DNA of 64,000 nt from Patescibacteria group bacterium (GCA_049322955.1 JBMOPU010000012.1:788791-852790); one strand, 5' to 3'; positions 2,348-42,641 are shown, counted from the stretch's first letter. A program made the numbers and translations. Notes: a model not told the origin generated them from the sequence alone.

Positions 2348-2986
2348 ATGAAGTCAACAATCCTTATCTCTCTCATAGGCATCCTACTGGTGAGCGCCAT
2401 AATTCTTGGAGCTTTGGGATATCACATGGGCACACCATTAACCACCCCGCAAACTGCGGTAGTTTCCACAAATACGGAGGCGACTTCTGCCTCCACACCG
2501 CCGACACCGATATCGAAGAAAACCCAGGAGAAAGGAGATGCGTTTGCCTCATGTGTCGTTTTTTCCCGACGAAATGTGAATACGTATGGCAGTAATCCCA
2601 ATATGCTTGATGACCGGTCGGAATTGCGGTGCAACAATCAGGGTACCTGGCAAACAATGGTCACGGTAAAGGATAAGGCGGGTTCATCCGCGTCAGCGCA
2701 CTCGATTTATCGGTTCTGGAAAGACGAAAACGGGTATCGGTTGCTTATCGTTGATACAAACGGCGCGGGAAGTGGCGAGGGAATCGGCAAACTCGTTACT
2801 CTTTTTAACGACTCCGCCGTACTCACTTCATGTTTTTCGTTTCTCCCGGAAGATTTTTCCGTGCTTTCGACCGAAAAATGGAATACCCCGCTTTCCGCGG
2901 AAGAATATGGGGCTATCCAAAAAAACTTATTGAGCAACACAGGTTCAGGTTGTACTAACTACACCATTGCTTCGTCCGTGCGTTAA
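2348..2986 (+). CDS. Membrane-anchored extracytoplasmic hypothetical protein with Thr/Pro-rich linker
   Basis: N-terminal TM helix (ILISLIGILLVSAIILGAL) followed by PLTTPQTAVVSTNTEATSASTPPTPIS low-complexity linker and a Cys-containing globular domain. Confidence 0.45.
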   Translation: MKSTILISLIGILLVSAIILGALGYHMGTPLTTPQTAVVSTNTEATSASTPPTPISKKTQEKGDAFASCVVFSRRNVNTYGSNPNMLDDRSELRCNNQGTWQTMVTVKDKAGSSASAHSIYRFWKDENGYRLLIVDTNGAGSGEGIGKLVTLFNDSAVLTSCFSFLPEDFSVLSTEKWNTPLSAEEYGAIQKNLLSNTGSGCTNYTIASSVR

Positions 2987-3025
2987 TTTTGTGTCCGGCT
3001 CATACAATTTGCTACACTGATATGT

Positions 3026-3973
3026 ATGCTTGGTCATATTGCACTCTATGCATTGGGATTTGCCGGTATATGGTTCGGTGCGGGTATTGCCATACGGGCG
3101 GTGGAGAAAATCGCCCATAAACTCCGACTCTCTTCGTTTCTCGTTTCGTTTCTCGTGCTCGGATTTTTTACCTCGATTAGCGAAGTATCGGTGGGAGTCA
3201 ACGCCGTGCTTTCGGGTCAGCCTGACATTTTCGTGGGAAATCTTATCGGTGCGTCTATCGTGCTGTTCCTTATGGTGATTCCCCTCCTTGCCATTGTGGG
3301 GCACCCCATATCCATAAACAAAGAAGTACGCGGACGCCATCTCATCCTCCCACTCGTGGTTGTTGCTATCCCGGTCTTACTGTCGTTCGACGGCATGGTA
3401 AGCCGTATTGATGCCATCATTGCGGTTACGCTCTTTGCACTATCGGCACTGGTTCTGGAACGGCGGAAAGGGTTTGTCAAAAACGTAGCGACGTACGCCA
3501 CTTTCAAAAATCTGTCGGTAGCAACCGAATTTTCCAAAACGCTCGCGGGATCGCTTATCATTTACGCCTCAAGCTGGATGGTCGTCAATCAGACGCACTA
3601 CTTTTCTACCCTGCTGGGGCTTTCGGATTTTTTCATCAGTCTTATGGTTATCGGCATCGGCACCAACTTGCCGGAACTTTCCCTGATCGTGCGCTCGCTC
3701 TTTATGAAAAGTAATCAGGTGGCGTTCGGCGATTACCTGGGTTCGGCATCATTTAACTCCTTCCTTTACGGCATCCTTACGCTCTGGCACGGAAAATCCA
3801 TTATGTTAAACAATAGTTACGCGGTAAGTTTAGGCTTTCTGATCGTGGGACTGGTCTTATTTTTTATCTTTGCCAAAAGTAAGCACACTATTTCACGCCT
3901 TGAGGCATTGGGATTATTTACGCTCTATATCGCGTTTTTCCTGATTGAAGTATTTACGCACTTACCCGCCTAA
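3026..3973 (+). CDS. Ca2+/Na+ antiporter (CaCA family, YrbG-like)
   Basis: Polytopic membrane protein with the two alpha-repeat signatures GNLIGASIV and GTNLPELSL characteristic of CaCA exchangers. Confidence 0.75.
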   Translation: MLGHIALYALGFAGIWFGAGIAIRAVEKIAHKLRLSSFLVSFLVLGFFTSISEVSVGVNAVLSGQPDIFVGNLIGASIVLFLMVIPLLAIVGHPISINKEVRGRHLILPLVVVAIPVLLSFDGMVSRIDAIIAVTLFALSALVLERRKGFVKNVATYATFKNLSVATEFSKTLAGSLIIYASSWMVVNQTHYFSTLLGLSDFFISLMVIGIGTNLPELSLIVRSLFMKSNQVAFGDYLGSASFNSFLYGILTLWHGKSIMLNNSYAVSLGFLIVGLVLFFIFAKSKHTISRLEALGLFTLYIAFFLIEVFTHLPA

Positions 3974-4945
3974 TCACCGAAGATACGTGTCGATATTCTC
4001 CAGGTGCTCTTCGTAGGTTTCCGCACAGTGAATCTCCCGGTCCGATGAGTGGAGATAGAAAATACAGTCCGTTTCTTCAGGGTTTAACACCGCTTCTATT
4101 GCGGCGAGTCCAGGGTTACTGATGGGTCCGGGCGGAAGTCCTTTATTGCGATACGTATTGTACGGCGATTCCAGGTATTTATCCTGCGGGACCACTCTCG
4201 GCCACCAGCCGTCCTCGCTGTTGCCGCGTATATACTGAAGCGTCGCGTCGATTTCGAGCCGCATGTCGATGTCCAGCCGTTTCCATATGATGCCCGCGAT
4301 AAGCGCCTTGTCGCTATCTCCACCCGATTCCCGTTCGATAAGCGATGCGATTTTTAGCGCCGTCGTCCATTTGATATTTTTTGCCGTAAATTTATCGACG
4401 TACGGCGCGAATTTGGTATTGAAGTTATCCAGAAACCGTTTTGCCACAAGCGGTACGGGTTCATCGGTCGGCAACAGGTAAGTATCGGGAAAATACACTC
4501 CCTCGCGATACTCCGCAGAATCGGCGTTAAAGGCATTCCATTCTTTTTCCTGTTCCGCGGTCCACCCCAGCGTCGTACCCAAGAGTTCACCGATTTGTTC
4601 TTTGCGCAGTCCCTCACGCACGGTCACCCAAAAAAACTGCGGGGTATCCGTAATTTTTTCCGCGATGTCCCATGCGGGCATAGACGTATTGAGTCTATAC
4701 CCTCCCGGCACCACGGACTTCCCCACCGCGGTAATGTCCATAAACAACCGAAAAGCCGCTTCATTTTTGATAAGTCCCAACTTTTTGAGTTCTGCGGGAA
4801 CATCAAATTCGGCATTCTGTTGTGGAACGATGAGCACCCATTGTTCGGCAACGCGACTTACCGGTCCCAGTGTGTTCCACACACCGAATCCGATGGCACA
4901 AAGAGCGAGAGTAAATGCGATGACAAATGAAAGGATGTGCTTCAT
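3974..4945 (-). CDS. mltG: Endolytic murein transglycosylase MltG (YceG-like)
   Basis: N-terminal TM anchor; C-terminal hallmark YNTYRNKGLPPGPISNPG of the YceG/MltG family. Confidence 0.85.
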   Translation of the reverse strand: MKHILSFVIAFTLALCAIGFGVWNTLGPVSRVAEQWVLIVPQQNAEFDVPAELKKLGLIKNEAAFRLFMDITAVGKSVVPGGYRLNTSMPAWDIAEKITDTPQFFWVTVREGLRKEQIGELLGTTLGWTAEQEKEWNAFNADSAEYREGVYFPDTYLLPTDEPVPLVAKRFLDNFNTKFAPYVDKFTAKNIKWTTALKIASLIERESGGDSDKALIAGIIWKRLDIDMRLEIDATLQYIRGNSEDGWWPRVVPQDKYLESPYNTYRNKGLPPGPISNPGLAAIEAVLNPEETDCIFYLHSSDREIHCAETYEEHLENIDTYLR

Positions 4946-4981
4946 GAAGGAAAACCGATTTCCCCATGATACAATCTATAC

Positions 4982-5857
4982 ATGGAAAATTCCATGACTG
5001 TGGCCGTTTCATCTGACTGGAAAGAGTATGAACTGATCGACAGCGGCAACGGCGAGAAACTTGAGCGGTTTTCGTCATATATCATTTCCCGTCCCGACCC
5101 GCGCGCCATATGGAAACCCATTGCCCCCTCCGCCGTATGGGACAGGGCACATGCGCGGTACGTACGGGGATCCAAAGAAGAAGGGTATTGGGACATCAGG
5201 ATGCCTCCCCCGCAAAACTGGCAGGTTCGTTACCATGACCTCGTATTCACCCTGAAACCGACGTCTTTTAAACACGTGGGGGTGTTTCCCGAACAATCCG
5301 TAAATTGGCGATGGATGATGCAGACAATTGCAGGACGTCCGCTCAAGGTATTAAACCTGTTTGCGTACACCGGAGGTGCCACCATGGCGGCGCTTGCGGC
5401 GGGAGCACATGTTACCCATGTAGATAGTGCAAAAGGCGCCATCGAGTGGGCAAAAGAAAACGCCACAGCTTCCGAACTGATCGATAAACCGGTTCGCTGG
5501 ATTACCGATGATGCGGTGAAATTTGCGGCAAGAGAGCTCAAGCGCGGCAATACCTATGACGGCATCATCCTTGATCCGCCGCGTTTCGGCAGAGGACCCA
5601 AAGGTGAGGTGTGGAAAATTGAGGTCGACCTGCCGAAACTTACCCCGATACTCACGGGGCTTTTGTCCCCCAACCCCGCATTTGTTTTGATAAACGCCTA
5701 CACTGCGGACTTATCGGCACTCGTAATCGGTCACTTACTGCAGGATATGACGGCATCTCTTCCGGGCACCCGATCGTTCGGCGAATTGACGATTGCGGAT
5801 TCGACAAGCGGTCGATTGCTTCCCAACGGTATTTTCGCCCGATGGAGCGCTTCCTGA
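4982..5857 (+). CDS. Class I SAM-dependent rRNA methyltransferase (RlmI/RlmK-like)
   Basis: Motif I LNLFAYTGGATMAALAAGA, VDSA, and ILDPPRFGRG (DPPxF) in the same order and spacing as E. coli RlmI catalytic domain. Confidence 0.6.
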   Translation: MENSMTVAVSSDWKEYELIDSGNGEKLERFSSYIISRPDPRAIWKPIAPSAVWDRAHARYVRGSKEEGYWDIRMPPPQNWQVRYHDLVFTLKPTSFKHVGVFPEQSVNWRWMMQTIAGRPLKVLNLFAYTGGATMAALAAGAHVTHVDSAKGAIEWAKENATASELIDKPVRWITDDAVKFAARELKRGNTYDGIILDPPRFGRGPKGEVWKIEVDLPKLTPILTGLLSPNPAFVLINAYTADLSALVIGHLLQDMTASLPGTRSFGELTIADSTSGRLLPNGIFARWSAS

Positions 5858-6023
5858 GCAGATTCAAGTTTGCTATAATAAGGTGCCCTAAAACCGATGC
5901 GAAAAGAGCGAGGTTGCAAAAAGGGCATAATCCGTTGCGAAGGGGTGATACAGTTGGGAGAACCTTCGCAACTTATTGAAGGAAAAGCGTTGGGGAAAAA
6001 CCTCGGTTTTGCCCCATGAAGAT

Positions 6024-6097
6024 GCCCCCTTAGCTCAACGGCAGAGCAGCGGTATCGTAAACCGTAGATGTCAGTCCAATTCTGACAGGGGGCTCCA
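6024..6097 (+). tRNA. tRNA-Thr (anticodon CGT), includes encoded CCA
   Basis: Hand-folded: acceptor GCCCCCT/AGGGGGC, D-arm GCTC/GAGC, anticodon stem GCGGT/ACCGT with loop ATCGTAA (anticodon CGT), T-arm GTCAG/CTGAC, discriminator T then CCA. T-loop (TCCAATT) deviates slightly from canon. Confidence 0.75.
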
Positions 6098-6103
6098 AAA
6101 TTT

Positions 6104-6817
6104 ATGATTTCATCCCGATTACGAAGAGTTGAGGAAAAAAAAGCTTCCAAACGGATGGCAATGGCCGTTATCGGGATGGTGGGAACACTCGTGTTCCTTG
6201 CGCTTTTCGGCGTAAAAATTCTCATCGGTTTCAGTGTGTTAGTGGATAAAATTCGCGGGAACTCCCCCGCCCAACAGCAACCGCAGGAATCCCTGATCCT
6301 TCCGCCGGTACTTGATCCGCTTCCCGAGGCCACCCATAGTGCTACCCTCGACGTGCACGGCAGGGGCACCGCGAAAATGACGGCAATACTTTTCGTCAAT
6401 GACAGTGAGTACAAAAAAGTGCCGATTACCGATGACGGAAGCTTCACCGTCACGGATATTCCGGTCGAACCGGGAACGGTCACCGTACGCGCCAAAATTA
6501 CCGACGGAAAAGACAACACCAGTGATTTTTCCCCCGTCATTTCCACTGTTGTGGATCGAACCCCGCCGAAACTGACCATCGACAATCCCGAAGATAACAT
6601 CACCGTCAATGACGGGACACATAAAGTTACAGTTAACGGGATCACCGATGAAGGCATGAAAGTGACGATCAACGGACGGATTGTCGTCGTAAAATCAGAC
6701 GGATCGTTCACCTACAGCATGCCATTAAATGATGGGGATAATCTTTTGACTATAATCGCCAAGGATCCGGCGGGTAATGAAACTTCGCAAACCCGTAAGG
6801 TTATTTATAAGCCGTGA
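6104..6817 (+). CDS. Membrane-anchored hypothetical protein with Ig-like beta-rich repeats
   Basis: TM helix near N-terminus, Gln/Pro-rich linker, then repeated T/V/D/G-rich beta-strand-like segments (e.g. VTVNGITDEGMKVTINGRIVVV). Confidence 0.45.
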   Translation: MISSRLRRVEEKKASKRMAMAVIGMVGTLVFLALFGVKILIGFSVLVDKIRGNSPAQQQPQESLILPPVLDPLPEATHSATLDVHGRGTAKMTAILFVNDSEYKKVPITDDGSFTVTDIPVEPGTVTVRAKITDGKDNTSDFSPVISTVVDRTPPKLTIDNPEDNITVNDGTHKVTVNGITDEGMKVTINGRIVVVKSDGSFTYSMPLNDGDNLLTIIAKDPAGNETSQTRKVIYKP

Positions 6818-7982
6818 TTTCCTGTTCCATTGTTCCAGTGAGTATCCACAGCCATACCAACACCCACGGGTAAAACAGACTATTCACAAACAGACTGTGT
6901 AAGAGGAGTGCGGTCAACACACCCAGATACGTAGCCGCGGACAACCGATGCTTCTCGCCTGCTCGGTACAGTCGCATCCCCGATCCAAAAAGTGACACGA
7001 GTAACCATACGTACACCCCAAAACCGACAAGTCCTGTAGTCGCTCCCACAAAGAGCAGGCTCGTGTCCAGTCCCGCCCCCGCCCTTGAGGGGACGGACGA
7101 TTCATCAAGCCAGCTCCGCTCTCTTGCCACAAACCGCAAAAGATTAAATCCGTGACCGAATAACGGCTTTTCTTTGATAAGGGTGATCGCCCGCTGGGCA
7201 TTACCGACCCGGGCATACGAAGACACACTGCGGAATAGGTTGCGGCCTTCGCCCGAATTCGGCAGTAACAGAAAACCCACAAGAACTGCGGCGATGACAA
7301 TCCCCGCCAGCTTTTTATACCCGGAAAGTACCGCCCACACGATAAGACCGCCGACCAGTGCGACTATACTACTTCGGGAATACGTCAGGGCAAAGGCAAG
7401 CAACACCAGTCCCGTTAACGCATATCGCATGAACGGTTGCATGCCTTTGTGTTGTGTTCCCAGAAGCGAAAGGAGGGTAAGCGTGAGGATGATCCCCATA
7501 AAATTCGGATCAAGCAGGGTACCGAACAGTCGTTGATAGTGAGGATCCCACCCAAGATACGCAAGATTCCGTAAATCGGGGTACCAAAAATACTGAAGCA
7601 AGCCGACACCCGCCATGCACACTCCGGAGAGGGTGAGTGTACGCCGCCAAACGACGGGAGCAAATAATTTCCCCACGGCTGTCCAATACAACGCGGCATA
7701 TAGGAGGAAACGGAGCACATAAAGGAGTCCTCCTCCCACGACATAGAGCGGCACATTTGTCACTGTCTGTGCCAGTGAAATAAGGCAGATTCCGGTAAAT
7801 GCGATTATCGGTGCCCAAAGATGCGGGATTATACGCTTTTTTCCGCTTCGGAGCGCTCCGTACAAAACGAGGACAAGCACGGAAATATCAAGCAGGGTCA
7901 CCCGCGCACCCAACGCGACGGGCATCGAAATAATGTTTCCCGCGATGAGTCCCGCGGCAAGAAACAGTAAGGGATAGTGCAT
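6801..7982 (-). CDS. O-antigen ligase-like (Wzy_C domain) polytopic membrane protein
   Basis: ~10-12 predicted TM segments with a central larger loop; segment ALTYSRSSIVALVGGLIVWAV resembles Wzy_C/WaaL core; neighbourhood of glycosyltransferases. Confidence 0.5.
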   Translation of the reverse strand: MHYPLLFLAAGLIAGNIISMPVALGARVTLLDISVLVLVLYGALRSGKKRIIPHLWAPIIAFTGICLISLAQTVTNVPLYVVGGGLLYVLRFLLYAALYWTAVGKLFAPVVWRRTLTLSGVCMAGVGLLQYFWYPDLRNLAYLGWDPHYQRLFGTLLDPNFMGIILTLTLLSLLGTQHKGMQPFMRYALTGLVLLAFALTYSRSSIVALVGGLIVWAVLSGYKKLAGIVIAAVLVGFLLLPNSGEGRNLFRSVSSYARVGNAQRAITLIKEKPLFGHGFNLLRFVARERSWLDESSVPSRAGAGLDTSLLFVGATTGLVGFGVYVWLLVSLFGSGMRLYRAGEKHRLSAATYLGVLTALLLHSLFVNSLFYPWVLVWLWILTGTMEQEITAYK

Positions 7983-7983
7983 A

Positions 7984-9066
7984 TCAAAAAATACTTACTA
8001 GCCAAAGTATAATCGCTCCGATAGTCCCGTGAGAAGCGGGTATCCACCCGAACGGCAAACCGGTGAAAAATCCCGGTGATGCAACATTGGCGCTTATCAA
8101 CAGATACCCGAGCACCAAGAGGCCCCGAAACATCTTTTTTTCATTACGTTTCCACAACACAAAAAAAGTCGGAATCAAAAAAACAAAGTGATGTTGCCAG
8201 GCAATGGGTTCGACAAGCAAAAATACCGGCATTGCAAGCCATAATGCCTCGGGAAACCGTATTTTATTTTTTCGGAACGCAGAGGCGGTTACGGTGATGA
8301 TGATACCCGCGATAATTGCGTACGAAATAACGTCTGTTGTTCCCATTCGCGCCAACAATCCCGTAATCCCCTGATTGTAGTAGATACCGTGATCCTGCCA
8401 TGTCCCCATTGCTTTCTGCATCCGTTCCGCGTATCGCACGTACGCATCAAATCCGTACACGCCCAACGATGCGATACCAACACCTGCCATCCACGCACCA
8501 ACGGAAAGCAGAGTCGTCCACCGACGGTATGCCAGAAGCACCGCCAGGAGAAGGATAACCTCCGGCTTGATAAGAACAGCCAGCGCGAATAATCCGCCCA
8601 TTACCAGCCGGTGATATTTATTTTCATAATAAATCGCACCGATAATGAGTGCCAACGCGTAAAAATTAACTTGCCCCATCCCCAAGGTAAATTGACTGGG
8701 AAATGACAAATAGCTCAAAGCGACAAGGGTAAGTGTCGTTCGCGTGTCGGTTACTCCTGATTGTCTTGCCAGGAACCATACGATACCGACAAGACTGGCA
8801 AATGAGCCAAGTATCCATAACGCTTCCATAATTTCATACGGAAGAAGCGCCAACGGGGAAAATACCAATAGCGACGCGGGGGGCAACAGGTGGATGGGAC
8901 GCGGGACGTTTCGTATTACCTCTCCGGCCGCCTCGTAGTAATAGAAAAAATCCGGTGCGGATGTGGCGATGATCCGAAACACGGAAACCGCGGCCTTGAG
9001 CGCCGCGCCGACAACGACAACCCATTGAGCGACGACAATTACCCGCGCTGATTTTGGAGTTGCCAT
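7984..9066 (-). CDS. DUF2029 / GT87-like integral membrane glycosyltransferase
   Basis: Polytopic membrane protein with the DFFYYYEAA-type motif seen in DUF2029 (GT87 mannosyltransferase-like) proteins. Confidence 0.45.
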   Translation of the reverse strand: MATPKSARVIVVAQWVVVVGAALKAAVSVFRIIATSAPDFFYYYEAAGEVIRNVPRPIHLLPPASLLVFSPLALLPYEIMEALWILGSFASLVGIVWFLARQSGVTDTRTTLTLVALSYLSFPSQFTLGMGQVNFYALALIIGAIYYENKYHRLVMGGLFALAVLIKPEVILLLAVLLAYRRWTTLLSVGAWMAGVGIASLGVYGFDAYVRYAERMQKAMGTWQDHGIYYNQGITGLLARMGTTDVISYAIIAGIIITVTASAFRKNKIRFPEALWLAMPVFLLVEPIAWQHHFVFLIPTFFVLWKRNEKKMFRGLLVLGYLLISANVASPGFFTGLPFGWIPASHGTIGAIILWLVSIF

Positions 9067-9785
9067 ATTTTTGCTCGGGTAAGAAATGAGTGAAAACTCA
9101 TCATGAGGGCAACAATACTTCCCACAACACCGTCACGGTACCCTTGCTTGCCGACATAGTTTAGGAAAAATTTTGCCAGGGGATACGCGACTATCTGCCA
9201 TACCGTAACCCGGGTGCCGGTTTCATAAAAATGTTTTGCGTTTATCGTGGAATAGTCGTTGATGTCCCGAAGAAATTCCGCCACCGTCTGATGCGGCATA
9301 TGCGTAAGCGGAGCATTGAGTGTCCCGACAACTCCCGCCACCTTCCATACCTCATGTACGGGTCGGTGCCATTTGCCCTTTCCGCTCCTGCCGAGGCGGA
9401 GGAGTCGCACCCCTGCCGTCTCACCGAATCGTAATGTCGTTCCCCAGAGCACATCCTGCCGTTTGAGGAAGAAGCCGCTGACATCCACCTGAAGAACCGC
9501 TTCTTGTATCTCGCGGGCAAGTTCAGGACTCACCACTTCATCGGCATCGACAAAGAGTATCCATTCTCCCCGGGCTTTGGATAGTCCGAAATTACGTTGA
9601 GCGGCAAAATCACCATTGATGGCACGAGTGTGCACAACCGCTTTTTTTCTCTTTGCGACGGCAATCGTGTCATCGGTGGAATTGTCGTCTATGACAATCA
9701 CTTCGTTGCAAAATCGCACGCTATCAAGCGTCATCTCGAGTGTCCGGGCGGCATTGCGGGCGAGAATAACTGCGGATATACCCAT
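9039..9785 (-). CDS. Glycosyltransferase family 2 (WaaE/KdtX-like)
   Basis: ISAVILARNAA...VIVIDDNSTDDT...FVDADE (DxD) signatures of GT2; C-terminal hydrophobic segment. Paralog of 15317..16009. Confidence 0.75.
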   Translation of the reverse strand: MGISAVILARNAARTLEMTLDSVRFCNEVIVIDDNSTDDTIAVAKRKKAVVHTRAINGDFAAQRNFGLSKARGEWILFVDADEVVSPELAREIQEAVLQVDVSGFFLKRQDVLWGTTLRFGETAGVRLLRLGRSGKGKWHRPVHEVWKVAGVVGTLNAPLTHMPHQTVAEFLRDINDYSTINAKHFYETGTRVTVWQIVAYPLAKFFLNYVGKQGYRDGVVGSIVALMMSFHSFLTRAKIWQLQNQRG

Positions 9786-21135: not shown

Positions 21136-21567
21136 TTAGTTATATCCCGCTTGTGCCCATCGGGCGAGTGCTGATCCGCGTTTTACGGTGAGGAATCCCG
21201 TGCTATCAAGCCGTTCTTCATTGAGCGCGGGTGTTGCACCGTATGCCTGCAATTGCGCATGCCACATATCCGATTCACCCATAAAATATGCCAATCCAAA
21301 CGGATATTGCGTGTTACCGGTGTGCGGCATCGTAGCATCGTAATGCTTGCGTATATCGGGGGTCATAGGATTTGCTATGAGGAACAATCCGCTCTTCAAC
21401 CGTCGAAGCTCACCTTCCACAAACCGCAGAGGATGTTTGCGAAATTGTTTCGAGACTTCTGTCAGCATGTCGGAAAAAACCATCGGATCATACGACCGCT
21501 CAGCCCGGGCGACGAGCTCACGCACTGCGGCTTCTTCTTGGACGTTGGATCGCTCTATACGTGCCAT
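21136..21567 (-). CDS. Hypothetical protein (143 aa)
   Basis: ORF immediately downstream (same strand) of tRNA-Val; no motif recognised. Confidence 0.4.
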   Translation of the reverse strand: MARIERSNVQEEAAVRELVARAERSYDPMVFSDMLTEVSKQFRKHPLRFVEGELRRLKSGLFLIANPMTPDIRKHYDATMPHTGNTQYPFGLAYFMGESDMWHAQLQAYGATPALNEERLDSTGFLTVKRGSALARWAQAGYN

Positions 21568-21660
21568 AGGGTGTAAATATACACAAATCGGAGGAAAAAA
21601 TCAAACTATGGGATTCCTCGTGATGCTCGCGGCAATAACGGGAATACGAACACATACTGG

Positions 21661-36559: not shown

Positions 36560-36638
36560 ATGCTGTAAAGCGTATGGTACACCATGCGTAACCCTTCGTC
36601 ATATTGCACATAATTTTAACCTATAGTATAATCCGCGG

Positions 36639-37278: not shown

Positions 37279-37845
37279 CTAGATTCTGAATATCCGTTGA
37301 CGCAGTACTTCCGCCACTCCGTACCATCGTCCGCGAATCCAACGCTTTGCCAAGATAACGCCGATAACGTTACTTTCGGCATCAATCACAGGCTTTCCCG
37401 AAAAACCGAAATCCACGCGCTGACCGAGCGAAGATACGATGAGCTCTCTCGGTGCCCGACGCAATAAAACAGGTTTTTCTTTCGATACGGTCATCACCCG
37501 ATCGGTCGGCGGCATCAAGGGTATCGGAGACCCCAAAGTCACGTACTCAACGCCCGGTGTATAGTGCGTGGCGACTGATAATGCCTCGTTTATCGCAACG
37601 GGCTCGCTAAGCGATATATCCCGTGATCCGGCTACCTTTTCGAATGCAAGGTTCCTAAACGTTGCATTCCCAACCCTATTTCGCAGAATAAGCGCACGGG
37701 GCTCATGCGTTTTGCTGTCATGACTCACATGATACGCGGTAAGGATGCGGATACTCCCCTGGAGCCATATGGCACAAGCACCCCCGATAGGACCGTCACC
37801 GAAATACGCATCAAAATTTGATTGAGCGAGTTCTTGGGTATTCAT
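37279..37845 (-). CDS. Trypsin-like (S1/chymotrypsin fold) serine protease, apparently cytoplasmic (no signal peptide)
   Basis: His box ILTAYHVSHD (TAAHC-like), Ser box FGFSGKPV (GDSGGP-like); 188 aa; no N-terminal hydrophobic segment. Confidence 0.55.
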   Translation of the reverse strand: MNTQELAQSNFDAYFGDGPIGGACAIWLQGSIRILTAYHVSHDSKTHEPRALILRNRVGNATFRNLAFEKVAGSRDISLSEPVAINEALSVATHYTPGVEYVTLGSPIPLMPPTDRVMTVSKEKPVLLRRAPRELIVSSLGQRVDFGFSGKPVIDAESNVIGVILAKRWIRGRWYGVAEVLRQRIFRI

Positions 37846-37999
37846 AGCGCAATGGTGAGCATTATACTATAAGCTGTTTTGAGGCAAAATATCCTTACTT
37901 ACCATTTCGCATGATGTAAATTCGGGTATCGCCTGCGGCTTTTCTGAGGAGCGTACGTCGATTATTTTTGGCTAAACTGCCGCCATATTATGTGATATA

Positions 38000-38533
38000 A
38001 TGGAGCGTATGAACGCAAAAAATCAGACGGTTTCGTTTCGTCAAAGTAGCGTAATATTAATCATGCGACTTATCCTCGCCGAATGTATTATTCTTGGGGT
38101 AAATATTGCCCTTAAGTTACCACAGCTTGCCACTTCTGCACTCATGAATGACACCTCGGCAGTGACATCGTTGACTCTGATGAGTATTACGAGTCTCATC
38201 GCATCATCAATATTTCAACTTGCTCTGATCGCGTATATAACCCTGGACTGGACGAATCACGAATACGAAATTCGCGATGGTGCGATCATCCATCGACACG
38301 GTATTTTTTACCGAAAAGAAGAAATATATTCACTGCGTAATCTCGGCTCTGCCGTCATTTCTCAGTCTTTGTTGGGTCGACTATTTAACTTTGGAAGTAT
38401 TCACGCATACAGTCCGATCTTAAAACAGGATGTTCACATGCTTCTGGTACATAACCCCCAAGATATCGTGCATCACATACAAGACGACGTGGAACACACC
38501 GGAGGCAAACACGAAGTTATCCGTCGCAGTTAA
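38000..38533 (+). CDS. Membrane protein with bacterial PH (bPH_2/YdbS-YdbT-like) domain
   Basis: Two N-terminal TM helices followed by YEIRDGAIIHRHGIFYRKEEIYSLRNLGSAVISQSLLGRLFNFGSI typical of DUF304/bPH_2. Confidence 0.55.
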   Translation: MERMNAKNQTVSFRQSSVILIMRLILAECIILGVNIALKLPQLATSALMNDTSAVTSLTLMSITSLIASSIFQLALIAYITLDWTNHEYEIRDGAIIHRHGIFYRKEEIYSLRNLGSAVISQSLLGRLFNFGSIHAYSPILKQDVHMLLVHNPQDIVHHIQDDVEHTGGKHEVIRRS

Positions 38534-38732
38534 TGGCGCACTACAAAAAGGCGTCCAATACCGATACTCATTCGCGTGACGAAGCGGGTATTCCGATAAC
38601 CCCATACTCTTTCGAGAAATTGCACCCTTCCCTGTTTTTGGCAGATGCACTCAATATTGCCTCTGCCGAAAAAGATTTCTTTCCGCCTATTGTTTTTATA
38701 CCCGCACCCTCTCACCCGAAGACGGCGAAATG

Positions 38733-38774
38733 CAGAGAACAAAACAACCCATCGATATTTCTACCGATGGGTTG
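38733..38774 (-). terminator. Rho-independent terminator downstream of 38790..39776
   Basis: Perfect 10-bp inverted repeat CAACCCATCG/CGATGGGTTG (38745-38774) followed on the minus strand by TTTTGTTCT. Confidence 0.45.
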
Positions 38775-38789
38775 AAAAATTAAAAAACT

Positions 38790-39776
38790 TTACTTACTCC
38801 AATTTCCAAGACCTGATCGAATCTGACTTCTGTAACTCATTGTATTAAATTCATTACAGGGGTCTCTACTTACTTCTTGGATAACCGCGAAATCGCCCCA
38901 TATTGCAGGTCCAATTTCTCTACCACCTTCTGATTCATACCACATACCTTCTCCATAAGGAGTTGAGACTAACGAATCATGATGGGAACCTGTAGATACA
39001 GCAACGATTTTTACAAAATCACTCACTGAACACATTTCAAATTTTTTTGTTGCTCGACCGCTCGTGCTACTCCATGTTCCAGAGTCACCATACACGACAT
39101 CAGACCAAGTACCATTCATTGTTCCGTCCACTGCAACTGTTCCAATAAAAGTAGCAACATAGCCTAACATTGGAGCATCATACGTCAAAGTAAAAGCCAC
39201 ATTACTTCCAGTAATACTACCCGCAACAGTCCATGTATAACCTGCAGGAACATTACTACCAGTTCCTGTAATGTTTCCATTTACATCTTGGGTAATGGTC
39301 ATCGTTTTTGCGTATGTCCCTGGATACTTTGTACTGACTACATCAAAGTCCCATACACCCGACAAATTCAAGCTATACTTTGTTGTACTTGGATATGTTC
39401 CTGTAATATGGTTAGTCAACCACGCTCCTGAACCTTGAACTGGATTGGGCCTATCTAACTTGAAATCGGTGTCACAACTTTTGTTACTTAACCAAGCATC
39501 GTTCCACTTCATCATCAAGTTAAGACTGCCTTCTGTAACTGGCATAGTTGGTCTACTAAAATTTTCATATAGACCATTGAACATATGGGCTTGATAGTTA
39601 TATCCCCATTGATCGTATCCGAGTCCAATTATTTGACCTATCGCATCAGTCAACATACCTCCTTGAATTGTCTTGCACACATCTACCGCTGGCTTTGCGG
39701 ATTCAACGGGAGAAGCGACAAGAACAAATACTATACCAATTAAAACAAACATCAATAGTTTTTTCATCTTGTTCAC
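38790..39776 (-). CDS. Secreted hypothetical protein (signal peptide, Cys-containing, Thr/Gly-rich beta-rich), AT-rich, strong SD
   Basis: N-terminal signal peptide MNKMKKLLMFVLIGIVFVLVASPVESA; GGAGGTG Shine-Dalgarno 7 nt upstream of ATG (unusual relative to other genes here); AT-rich codon usage. Confidence 0.55.
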   Translation of the reverse strand: MNKMKKLLMFVLIGIVFVLVASPVESAKPAVDVCKTIQGGMLTDAIGQIIGLGYDQWGYNYQAHMFNGLYENFSRPTMPVTEGSLNLMMKWNDAWLSNKSCDTDFKLDRPNPVQGSGAWLTNHITGTYPSTTKYSLNLSGVWDFDVVSTKYPGTYAKTMTITQDVNGNITGTGSNVPAGYTWTVAGSITGSNVAFTLTYDAPMLGYVATFIGTVAVDGTMNGTWSDVVYGDSGTWSSTSGRATKKFEMCSVSDFVKIVAVSTGSHHDSLVSTPYGEGMWYESEGGREIGPAIWGDFAVIQEVSRDPCNEFNTMSYRSQIRSGLGNWSK

Positions 39777-39799
39777 CTCCTTTCATTATCAATTTGCAC

Positions 39800-39822
39800 A
39801 AAAAACCCGCCTCCGCGGCGGG
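39800..39822 (-). terminator. Orphan rho-independent terminator/attenuator hairpin immediately upstream of 38790..39776
   Basis: CCCGCC-TCCGC-GGCGGG hairpin followed on the minus strand by TTTTTT; no minus-strand ORF >=60 aa lies upstream of it for ~850 bp. Confidence 0.4.
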
Positions 39823-40677
39823 TGTCACGAAACAACACTACGTACTTTTTCTACGTAACTTTTCATGTCTTTTGTATCGTATCACATCTTATAGTCATAG
39901 TATGTAAAGCACCATACAACCGACCTGGCGGATATGGAATAAAAGATTGCTATGTAGGGGACGGGTATATCTTCTCCACCGATATTCGATATGCACGATC
40001 TGACCGAGGATCAACCGTATCAAACCCAAGCTCAGCCTCATTGCTCAAGATCCATTGTTTGATCAGAGCTCCTCCTATGAATTTGATTGCGTTATGCAAA
40101 GTAATTGTTCAAATACATGTTCAGACAAAATAAACTCATGGGATAAACAGTATTGCTATAATCAATGCGTTGAACCGTCAAAGCTGAATGTCAATCTAAA
40201 ACCTTATCAAAAACTAAATCTGACTATTTCTATAAACTGGTAAATAAATATTGTTATGAACTATACTAATTATTAGTATGACACCAATACTTATAGGGTT
40301 TATTATATTTACATTAATTATAGTCATAATAACTTTAATTCTAGAAAAACACCTACAGATCCTAATGGCAAAACTAGAATGGTAGTAGAGGGCTCTGATG
40401 GAAAGAGCAAAACTTACGAAATGTCTAATAAGGATGCCGATAATTTCACCGAGGCGATCTTTAAGGAAAGGTTTTTTGGTACGAAGAAGTGATTATGTTC
40501 TCTAAAAGGCAATTAAATTACACAAACGCTTCATTTGTCCCAAGCCGCTCCTTAGTCCTCGCGAAACCTCATTAATTTGCAGTCACCCTCCCCATGGCAT
40601 ACGTAACCAGGCTCAATTATATCCTATAGTTTGCAACTCTTTAACTTTTCTTCTATAATTGCCGCCGACGTAACCCT

Positions 40678-41451
40678 ATGGCAGAAAAAAGAAAACCCAC
40701 CATCTCGCCAGAGCAGATGCCTCGCTTCTCACACCCTCGCTGGCTTGCGGGTTTTCTCGAAGTCGGCGGCAGTATGAAGCTCACTATCGTGCGTAATCAT
40801 CAGAATGGGCATGAGACTCCCCAGGCACGACCCGAAATCGCTTACGGCGACGATGATCTGGATCGGATAACCAGACTTCGTGAGCTATGGGGAAGCACCG
40901 ACAAAGTTCGAACGGCGCGCTCCACAAGTTATGCGATTGTCCGAGGTGACCGTGCGGTATATATGGCCAACTCGATAGCTCCTGACGCCCTATCGAGACG
41001 CACTATCATCACCGCATTTCTTGATTGGCTACGTGCCGATTTTACCGAAGACCGTGTGGCGATAGCAGAGGGTGTCGTTGGGAGACGAACAGTTGATCCC
41101 GTACAACCGAAAGAATACCGCGGACTTGTACAAGACCCGGAGTTTGTCGCCGGAGTTATCGACTGTCGGGCTCGCGTGGCACCGGGCGAACAACCGGACA
41201 GAAAAAGAATTTCGTATTGGATATCGCACGTGGTCAAAGTGAATTCCGTAAACGGACCGCTCCTTGAGGCATTGCAATCGCAACATGGCGGACAATTTGT
41301 TCAAATCGGAAAAATGGGAGAAACCGTCCCTATGCGCGGCAAACAAGTTACCCTGAAAAACGATGCATTTGAGTGGATACTCGGTGCGGCAAACGCAAAG
41401 AACTTGATTACCTGGGCAAATCCAAGGCTTCCAATATCAAACGAAAAGTGA
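40678..41451 (+). CDS. Putative LAGLIDADG-like homing-endonuclease-fold protein (two degenerate motifs), free-standing
   Basis: First motif PRWLAGFLEVGGS (LAGLIDADG-like) at aa 21-33 followed by the expected ...DDLDRITRLRELWG... helix region; second motif FVAGVIDCRA at ~aa 148 followed by ...LLEALQSQHGGQFVQ..., spacing (~125 aa) typical of double-motif LAGLIDADG enzymes. GC-rich gene adjacent to AT-rich DNA. Confidence 0.4.
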   Translation: MAEKRKPTISPEQMPRFSHPRWLAGFLEVGGSMKLTIVRNHQNGHETPQARPEIAYGDDDLDRITRLRELWGSTDKVRTARSTSYAIVRGDRAVYMANSIAPDALSRRTIITAFLDWLRADFTEDRVAIAEGVVGRRTVDPVQPKEYRGLVQDPEFVAGVIDCRARVAPGEQPDRKRISYWISHVVKVNSVNGPLLEALQSQHGGQFVQIGKMGETVPMRGKQVTLKNDAFEWILGAANAKNLITWANPRLPISNEK

Positions 41452-41459
41452 GTTTATCG

Positions 41460-42641
41460 TTAACTCCTCTGTCGTAGGAATGCGGGGATGTCGAATTCGT
41501 CCTCTTCGGGAGGCGCGTCATCAGTTTGCGGGGCAAAACTCACGGGCGGCTGTTGCTTCATGGGTTGCTCCATAGGAGTGACGGGTTGCACGGGCGGCTT
41601 ACCGAAGGTCGGAGATTGTCTGCTAAAACTTCCGCCGTATCGCGGATCCATGGCGGGCTTACTGCTTAATTCACGCAGTCGCTTCTTGGTTTCATCAAAC
41701 CCTGTCGCCACCACCGTAATCTTGATCTGATCCACCAGTTTTTCATCGATGATGGCGCCGAAAATGATGTTGGCATCGGGATCCACCGCAGATGAAATAA
41801 GCTTTGCCGCCTCATCCACTTCGGCCATCGTGAGATCGTTGCCGCCGATGATGTTAAATAACACTCCCTTGGCTCCTTCGATGGTCGTTTCAAGAAGCGG
41901 CGAGGCAATCGCGGTACGTGCCGCGGTTGCCGCACGGTTTTCACCTACTCCCGTGCCGATTCCCATAAGGGCGCTTCCCGCATTGGTCATGATGGCGCGG
42001 ACATCCGCAAAGTCCACGTTGATAAGTCCCGGCATGGTGATCAGGTCAGAAATGCCCTGCACACCCTGACCCAACACGGAATCCGTGACGCGGAATGCTT
42101 CGACCAATGTCATTTTCTTGTCGATCACTTCAAGGAGCCGTTGGTTCGGGATGACGATAAGCGTATCCACTTTGTCCTTAAGATTTGCGATCCCCTCTTC
42201 CGCAGACACCATGCGTCGGGTGCCTTCGAAGTGAAAGGGCTTGGTGACAACGGCAACGGTCAGTGCGCCGACTTCTTTGGCAATTTCTGCAAACACGGGA
42301 GTGGCTCCCGTCCCCGTGCCGCCGCCTTCACCGCAGGTCAAAAAAACCATGTCGCTGTCGCGAAGATGCTCGGCAATCTTTTCCCGTGATTCCTCCGCCG
42401 CCTGTCGGCCGATATCGGGATTTCCCCCGGCACCCAATCCGCGGGTCAGGTTATCACCGATTTGGATTTTGCTTTGCGCTTGGGAAAGAAGCAATGCCTG
42501 CGCGTCGGTATTGACGGAAATAAAATCCACGCCGTTAATCTGATTGTTGAGGATCATGGAGTTGACGGCATTACTTCCGCCGCCGCCGATGCCGACGACT
42601 TTAATTTTGGCAAACCTTGCGATATCCGGTTTTATAAGCAT
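41460..42641 (-). CDS. ftsZ: Cell division protein FtsZ
   Basis: Tubulin signature GGGTGTG ([16 protein letters not shown]), N-terminal [16 protein letters not shown]-terminal conserved peptide DIPAFLR. Confidence 0.95.

Follow-up and report, generated by a model that had tools for sequence, protein, structure and literature searches.

In the window, that is, the whole 64,000-nucleotide stretch of DNA analysed here, a gene for a 257-aa protein lies at 40678..41451 on the plus strand; the open reading frame and the length of its product are as an earlier note on this DNA had given them. The gene, which comes from a MAG of a Patescibacteria group bacterium, is annotated as "hypothetical protein ACOY3M_04660" (protein MFZ5535408.1). 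Its product is a predicted two-domain protein, and the gene is called the LAGLIDADG-fold gene below. The start codon is supported by comparison of five loci, in which nucleotide conservation starts exactly at ATGGCAGAAAAA, and the N-terminus MAEKRK is common to four full-length homologues. All four motif strings quoted in the earlier note are present: PRWLAGFLEVGGS at residues 20-32, FVAGVIDCRA at 156-165, DDLDRITRLRELW at 58-71 and LLEALQSQHGGQFVQ at 195-209. The spacing of the two motifs had to be corrected, however, from about 125 to 134 residues.

The neighbouring ftsZ gene (41460..42641) is encoded on the minus strand and converges with the LAGLIDADG-fold gene, and only 8 bp (41452-41459) separate the two stop codons. 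Therefore, the open reading frame lies beyond the 3′ end of ftsZ. It had been placed directly upstream of ftsZ, whereas the two genes are in fact tail-to-tail. This convergent orientation excludes co-transcription with ftsZ. A search of 40400-41900 on the relevant strands revealed no terminator-like site, and the transcripts of the two genes probably overlap in antisense. In two related loci (L003 and L004), the gap between the two genes is wider and contains small ORFs. The gene is not GC-rich, as had been thought: its GC content of 51.8% (GC3 48%) is unremarkable beside the 49.2% of the window and the 49-55% of ftsQ, ftsA, ftsZ, murG and ftsW. The statement that the gene is not inside an rRNA or tRNA intron was borne out. 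It is free-standing between protein-coding genes, and an Rfam search of the window detected only two tRNAs and no intron or rRNA gene.

Conservation of the gene and variability of the surrounding DNA

We compared the locus with those of relatives. The gene occupies the same locus in all seven near-clade loci, and the order of a YgjP-like gene, the LAGLIDADG-fold gene and ftsZ is kept in seven loci, down to 58% protein identity. In a 93%-identical contig (L001), and also in L002, the position of the gene is unchanged, with 8 bp between it and ftsZ. In more diverged loci, with protein identities of 64% (L003) and 58% (L004/L005 and L007), it is still tail-to-tail with ftsZ; in L004, the YgjP-like gene lies directly upstream of the homologue. 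The dN/dS value was 0.15 against close relatives and about 0.10-0.13 against distant ones, and synonymous sites are saturated between lineages. None of the lineages examined has a disrupted reading frame, and the gene is present once in the 64-kb window and once in each locus retrieved. The earlier proposal that the gene was recently inserted is contradicted by its constant place beside ftsZ in relatives with saturated dS, by purifying selection and by its host-like GC content. Judged from these sequence comparisons, the LAGLIDADG-fold gene is an old, vertically inherited and selected host gene.

We also looked for traces of a selfish lifestyle. The gene is not carried by an intron or intein, and in the near clade its presence is not patchy. 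Around 40.6-41.5 kb, where the earlier note had advised looking for a target-site duplication, only chance-level repeats of 11-17 nt were found, none of them meaningfully flanking. No relatives were found in IMG/VR viral contigs. A phage or defence origin was considered and rejected: in addition to the IMG/VR result, PADLOC gave one sub-threshold "HEase" match, for one paralogue.

The DNA 5′ of the gene is indeed low in GC, as had been noticed. The segment 37879-40555 has 40% GC and its part 40000-40555 has 34%, against 49% for the window. It contains a gene for a bPH_2 membrane protein (38000..38533, plus strand), a gene for a 328-aa secreted protein with a signal peptide and no Pfam match (38790..39776, minus strand) and about 900 bp of AT-rich non-coding DNA. 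In L001 and L002, this segment is absent, with 58 bp in its place. In a 98%-identical genome (L006), a different filling of roughly 1 kb replaces 37880-39760, and 39760-40555 is common to that genome and the window. Thus, the 2.68-kb low-GC segment varies between strains, whereas the gene does not, and the supposed insertion event belongs to this neighbouring 2.7-kb segment.

Other insertions were observed nearby. In L007, an element of roughly 5.9 kb (2790-8530 of that locus) is inserted between the LAGLIDADG-fold gene and ftsZ. It encodes a tyrosine integrase (7374..8390, minus strand) and a rolling-circle replication protein of the Phage_CRI/G2P type (4287..5345, minus strand), and has the appearance of an inovirus-like or plasmid-like element that has integrated into a Patescibacteria genome. 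L001 carries a 257-aa Peptidase_S51 gene in its 8318-9230, between the matches to window positions 37314 and 37288; L002 carries it too, and the window is without it. In L001 and L002, this gene is flanked by the 206-aa and 188-aa genes. Taken together, the low-GC segment, the L007 element and the Peptidase_S51 indel mark the few kb on either side of the LAGLIDADG-fold gene as an indel hot spot. The records of L006 (CAYUZE010000002.1) and L007 (CAYHQC010000004.1) are labelled "uncultured Gammaproteobacteria bacterium". Over 20 kb, L006 has about 98% identity with the window, whose proteins are labelled "Patescibacteria group bacterium". One of the two labels is probably wrong.

The LAGLIDADG fold and the catalytic positions

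The proposal of a LAGLIDADG fold was supported by structure comparison. The structural model of the window protein is of moderate quality (pLDDT 66). A Foldseek search of the PDB with it gave 116 matches at E<=1e-3, and the top 50 were all LAGLIDADG meganucleases or engineered derivatives. When the window protein alone was used as the query, neither Pfam nor NCBIfam gave a match even at E<=10, and the best PDB match was I-PanMI with E=0.38; the top matches were LAGLIDADG proteins without significance. The homing-endonuclease PHROG phrog_5046 matches the window protein itself (E=2.3e-4). A profile of 78 family members matched solved LAGLIDADG enzymes in the PDB with E=1.4e-7 to 3.8e-7, and almost all of its 56 matches at E<=1 were LAGLIDADG proteins. 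Among 95 family members, 8 matched PF00961 (best 2e-7) and 4 matched PF14528, and PF03161 was absent from the Pfam matches. Thus, the LAGLIDADG matches in the PDB reached significance only with the family profile and not in the single-sequence search. Because the profile-to-PDB, PF00961/PF14528 and phrog_5046 matches agree, the fold is secure and homology is supported at the level of the family. According to the model, the fold is that of a two-domain LAGLIDADG protein (meganuclease), and in both sequence and fold the protein is nearer to active enzymes of the I-OnuI/I-CreI type than to WhiA.

In the N-terminal domain, LAGLIDADG helix 1 (PRWLAGFLEVGGS, residues 20-32) is encoded by 40735..40773, and its catalytic-acid position is G30 (40765-40767). 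It is followed by the β1-β2 hairpin (residues 33-58; 40774..40851), whose strands in the model are residues 32-42 and 45-58. LAGLIDADG helix 2 (FVAGVIDCRA, residues 156-165) is encoded by 41143..41172, with R164 at the catalytic-acid position (41167-41169). All three features are on the plus strand. In the model, the protein ends 10 residues past the last helix of domain 2.

We then aligned the two motifs with those of active enzymes. In motif 1, WLAGFLEVGGS aligns with ..GFVDGEGSF and WLAGFTSGEGCF, so that G30 stands at the catalytic acid, and HMM alignments place G30 opposite the catalytic Glu of I-PanMI and aHE15. In motif 2, FVAGVIDCRA aligns with VTGFVDAEGSF, with R164 at the catalytic acid; likewise, the family profile "peFvAGviDaRgs" aligned with "PWVVTGFVDAEGSF" of a solved enzyme puts R opposite the catalytic E. 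Among 123 family members of about 250 aa, the motif 1 position is Gly in 86, Ala in 22, Ser in 8 and Glu in 3, and the motif 2 position is Arg in 109 and Lys in 6. In a high-confidence model of a paralogue, the Gly and the Arg are each the last helical residue before β1. Active LAGLIDADG enzymes are recognised by D or E at motif position 8 of each helix, and the window protein has neither. The acids at motif position 6 are nearly invariant (E28 in 112 and D162 in 105 of the 123 members). An acid at this position is common in active LAGLIDADG enzymes (for example, D18 of I-CreI) and is not a catalytic ligand there.

These alignments show that the metal-binding acid is replaced in both motifs, by Gly and Arg, family-wide. 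The earlier note had inferred from the loss of acidic residues in motif 2 a possibly inactive or nicking variant. The loss is real; however, it extends to both motifs, and this argues against a nickase too. WhiA (DUF199) is a domesticated LAGLIDADG protein that acts as a transcription factor in Gram-positive bacteria and Thermotoga. In T. maritima WhiA, the two acid positions are occupied by arginine and glycine, and the protein does not digest DNA (PMC3384342). Because the same Arg/Gly pair is found here, both canonical cleavage and nicking are unlikely, and we infer from the aligned positions that the window protein has lost DNA cleavage. The active site could, with a small probability, have shifted to the near-invariant E28 and D162. 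On this basis, the gene could encode an active, free-standing homing endonuclease or nickase, which holds its metals by E28 and D162 and was inserted beside ftsZ. The conservation of these two acids, the closeness to active I-OnuI/I-CreI-type enzymes and the position of the gene between junctions that vary among strains are in keeping with such an enzyme. Nevertheless, position 8 is Gly or Arg in essentially all members listed, and the position-6 acid is shared with active enzymes in which it binds no metal for catalysis. Moreover, stable synteny with saturated dS, dN/dS of about 0.1, host-like GC, a single copy and the lack of a target-site duplication and of IMG/VR relatives all speak against it, and we consider it very unlikely. 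The description of the product as a homing endonuclease or maturase-like derivative, free-standing or domesticated, can therefore be kept for the domesticated LAGLIDADG fold and not for an active homing endonuclease, because the acids are lost and the gene is not selfish.

A conserved element upstream of the start codon

A consensus scan predicted a sigma-70-like promoter, TTGCAA-17-TATAAT (10/12 matches), at 40631..40659 on the plus strand. The predicted promoter is separated from the ATG by 18 nt, in which no Shine-Dalgarno sequence is present; its -10 box has been kept in five loci. A 13-nt candidate operator/promoter element, ATCCTATAGTTTG (40621..40633, plus strand), abuts and overlaps the -35 hexamer. 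No position of this element varies among the near-clade loci, even at 58% protein identity, whereas its flanks and the -35 hexamer have diverged, and each locus has a single copy of the element. In the distant loci L009 and L014 (28-30% identity), its core, C[CT]TATAG, also falls within the 44-55 nt before the start codon (at 44-46 nt), and in L015 the distance to the start codon is 22 nt. Outside the positions upstream of family genes, C[CT]TATAG occurs only 21 times in 189 kb, both strands counted. Five of the nine C[CT]TATAG sites of the 64-kb window fall within 36.6-40.7 kb.

Similar sequences are found at other promoters of the window. A copy with one mismatch, ATCCCATAGTTTG, lies at 21602-21614 on the minus strand in the layout TTGATT-17-TATATT, and the start-codon context CCCTATGGCA is likewise the same. 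It precedes an unrelated 143-aa ORF (21136..21567, minus strand), which has no Pfam match and is located just downstream of tRNA-Val. This copy could mark a shared regulon or a promoter typical of the lineage. Furthermore, CYTATAGTATAAT is also the -10 region of two neighbouring, unrelated genes. CCTATAGTATAAT is observed at 36620-36632 (plus strand) before the 206-aa gene, and CTTATAGTATAAT at 37855-37873 (minus strand) before the 188-aa gene. Because of the ATCCCATAGTTTG copy and the occurrence of CYTATAGTATAAT at unrelated promoters, the conserved box may be no operator but a promoter element typical of the lineage.

Nested inverted repeats bracket the start codon (40660-40669/40762-40771, a perfect 10-bp repeat, and 40690-40711/40736-40757), and the RNA fold around the start codon has a predicted energy of -40.7 kcal/mol (z=-2.4). 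A structured 5′ mRNA element was considered. It is present only partly in L001, the stem is absent in L003, L004 and L007, and there is no covariation. Thus, this candidate was rejected.

The family, its proposed function and related systems

An exhaustive HMM search gave 248 cluster representatives (50% identity) at E<=1e-3, of which 173 reached E<=1e-10. The family thus comprises at least 248 clusters at 50% identity, and most members are about 250 aa long. A metagenome scan with a 12-sequence alignment gave 3 loci, and a profile in a word-indexed protein search gave 7 proteins. The sources of the distant relatives include 0.1-micron groundwater filtrates, and the family has so far been seen on Patescibacteria-type metagenomic contigs. 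No description of the family was found in Pfam, NCBIfam, PHROG annotations or the searchable literature. Long paralogues carry C-terminal HTH-like or winged-helix modules, none of which matches PF02650. P0040, P0060, P0100 and P0113 consist of two full units of roughly 250 aa, that is, four LAGLIDADG-like domains per chain, and P0095 and P0111 have unrelated N-terminal extensions of 170-270 aa. The gene for P0100 (702 aa; L015 7189-9297) adjoins a gene for a DEAD/ResIII helicase fused to a Sigma70_r4 domain.

The neighbourhoods of members with 42% identity or less are different from that of the window gene. The gene follows ddl in L013 and lies by a pilin gene in L008. In L014, it is placed between a GTPase gene on one side and PIG-L and FemAB-like genes on the other, and in L012, S1, RadA-like and PIN genes are its neighbours. 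The ATP-synthase beta and epsilon genes are normally adjacent. In the contig that encodes P0153 (JGI 3300071358), these two genes are separated by a mostly unannotated block of roughly 5 kb, in which the P0153 gene and a HicB-like antitoxin gene are found. No consistent shared gene was found in the neighbourhoods of the distant members. A family-wide link with ftsZ was rejected, since members with 42% identity or less are in unrelated neighbourhoods and the adjacency is confined to those with at least 58% identity. Therefore, the position beside ftsZ belongs to the near clade and is not a property of the family.

The extent of the family also bears on whether the gene is a decaying remnant of a selfish element without current function. 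Although the catalytic residues are lost and variable DNA adjoins the gene, the frame is intact in every lineage examined, dN/dS stays at 0.10-0.15 across saturated synonymous divergence, and the promoter region and start codon are conserved. In addition, the same substitutions are fixed throughout a large family. A decaying remnant is strongly disfavoured, and we give it hardly any weight.

The explanation that we consider best, with moderate confidence, is that the window protein is a domesticated, catalytically dead, single-chain (pseudo-dimeric) meganuclease scaffold, which binds nucleic acid and is likely to be regulatory. We propose that it would act as a sequence-specific nucleic-acid binder, most likely of DNA, via the basic β-sheet saddle of its two domains. 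The invariant Arg164 would stand where active enzymes hold their catalytic metals, close to the central phosphates. The role of the protein may be regulatory as in WhiA, and the protein might also control the promoter of its own gene by way of the conserved CCTATAG element. A regulatory role is suggested because paralogues are fused to HTH modules, because WhiA provides a precedent and because the upstream box is conserved.

Several properties of the protein bear on this proposal. The protein is basic (pI 9.6). On family average, each of the four β-sheet segments has a net positive charge (+0.5 to +2.2), and the interdomain linker is net negative; the window protein's own β1-β2 segment has a net charge of 0. 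In homing endonucleases, the β1-β2 hairpin is the base-reading element. This hairpin is the best conserved part in the near clade (..RN.QNGH.TPQARPEI.YGD), with 21 of 27 residues invariant across five lineages against 41% overall. No HTH was found in the window protein by Pfam. In WhiA, the one domesticated LAGLIDADG protein that has been characterised, the endonuclease-like domain serves chiefly as a scaffold for contacts between proteins, and it is the HTH that reads DNA (PMC10243135). Therefore, DNA binding mediated by the saddle should not be assumed.

Two other functions were weighed against nucleic-acid binding of a regulatory kind. The protein might be a trans-acting RNA maturase or chaperone for group I introns of rRNA or tRNA genes. 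Comparable to the bI3 and I-AniI-type maturases but with its gene outside the intron, a dead LAGLIDADG protein would assist the folding and splicing of these introns. A basic protein would suit this role, and maturases are known to arise when the endonuclease residues are lost and the fold is kept (PMC3384342). Moreover, introns in rRNA and tRNA genes of Patescibacteria are many and often ORF-less (PMC11270868, PMC13011429). However, the Rfam search found no intron or rRNA gene in the window, and the HTH/winged-helix additions of the paralogues point to DNA and not to RNA. We regard a maturase as rather unlikely.

Alternatively, the protein may be a protein-protein scaffold like the N-terminal domain of WhiA, with little or no nucleic-acid recognition of its own and possibly with a partner in cell division, as the gene borders the dcw-ftsZ cluster at its end. 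The endonuclease-like domain of WhiA bridges WhiB and the HTH domain, its endonuclease DNA interface being unused, and WhiA and WhiB control ftsZ and ftsW (PMC10243135). The Arg/Gly replacement is the same as in T. maritima WhiA; in addition, ftsZ adjoins the gene in the near clade, ddl precedes it in L013 and a FemAB-like gene is near it in L014. The ftsZ adjacency is, however, found only at 58% identity or more, and the convergent genes form no operon. Furthermore, none of 95 members matched the Pfam models of WhiA, and the β-sheet faces are net basic family-wide, whereas the face of the WhiA N-domain is acidic (PMC3384342). Thus, a pure scaffold seems unlikely to us.

Coming back to the domesticated nucleic-acid binder, a bolder form of this proposal can be stated, although we hold it to be doubtful. 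The family would be Patescibacteria's own large family of domesticated meganucleases, acting as sequence-specific regulators that read DNA by the saddle, with Arg164 in place of metals, unlike WhiA, in which an appended HTH does the reading. The window clade would control its own promoter via CCTATAG, and possibly the convergent ftsZ/dcw transcript. If this were true, the family would amount to a naturally occurring collection of nuclease-dead meganucleases that differ in specificity. Nuclease-dead single-chain scaffolds with diverse β-hairpins could also interest protein engineers. To our knowledge, most regulators of Patescibacteria are unknown, and intron-borne LAGLIDADG genes are abundant in this group. 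The family, which goes undetected by Pfam and NCBIfam and has given rise to HTH-fused and tandem-duplicated forms, is a concrete candidate for the way in which selfish nucleases feed the regulatory or RNA-handling repertoire of the host. The annotation "hypothetical protein" could be changed to "LAGLIDADG-fold protein, catalytic residues absent".

Among the closest known systems are the monomeric, double-motif enzymes I-OnuI, I-LtrI, I-GzeII and I-HjeMI and the pseudo-dimers I-CreI and I-MsoI. In contrast to the I-OnuI-type enzymes, the window protein is without the metal-binding acids, and its gene is outside any intron or intein, single-copy, syntenic and under purifying selection, with no sign of a homing site or target-site duplication. 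The LAGLIDADG maturases, such as the yeast bI3 maturase, are more similar in that a LAGLIDADG scaffold has its DNA cleavage lost or down-graded; I-AniI is a dual-function enzyme. Such maturases have gained a nucleic-acid-binding role that benefits the host (PMC3384342). However, they sit inside the intron that they serve, whereas the window gene is free-standing with a predicted promoter.

In its proposed mode of action, the window protein is most similar to WhiA, likewise a host protein on a dead bipartite LAGLIDADG fold with acid-free catalytic positions. As in WhiA, HTH modules stand C-terminal to the LAGLIDADG domain in the long paralogues. In actinomycetes, ftsZ is under the control of WhiA (PMC10243135), and WhiA also regulates its own gene (PMC3384342). 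The window protein differs from WhiA in that the C-terminal HTH (PF02650) is absent. Membership in the WhiA family was rejected: neither PF10298 nor PF14527 was among the Pfam matches of 95 members at E<=0.01, and the window protein has no HTH. No WhiA chain was among the 56 PDB matches of the family profile at E<=1, and no literature linking WhiA with Patescibacteria was found.

We know of documented domestication of LAGLIDADG proteins into host proteins essentially for WhiA, the intron-encoded maturases and HO. The present family looks like a second, independent bacterial domestication. In CPR/Patescibacteria, LAGLIDADG enzymes are encoded inside insertions of 16S and 23S genes at conserved rRNA sites, and one of them cleaves (PMC11270868). 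Compared by description, these enzymes have the host phylum and the superfamily in common with the window family, whereas the members of the window family are free-standing and without the catalytic acids.
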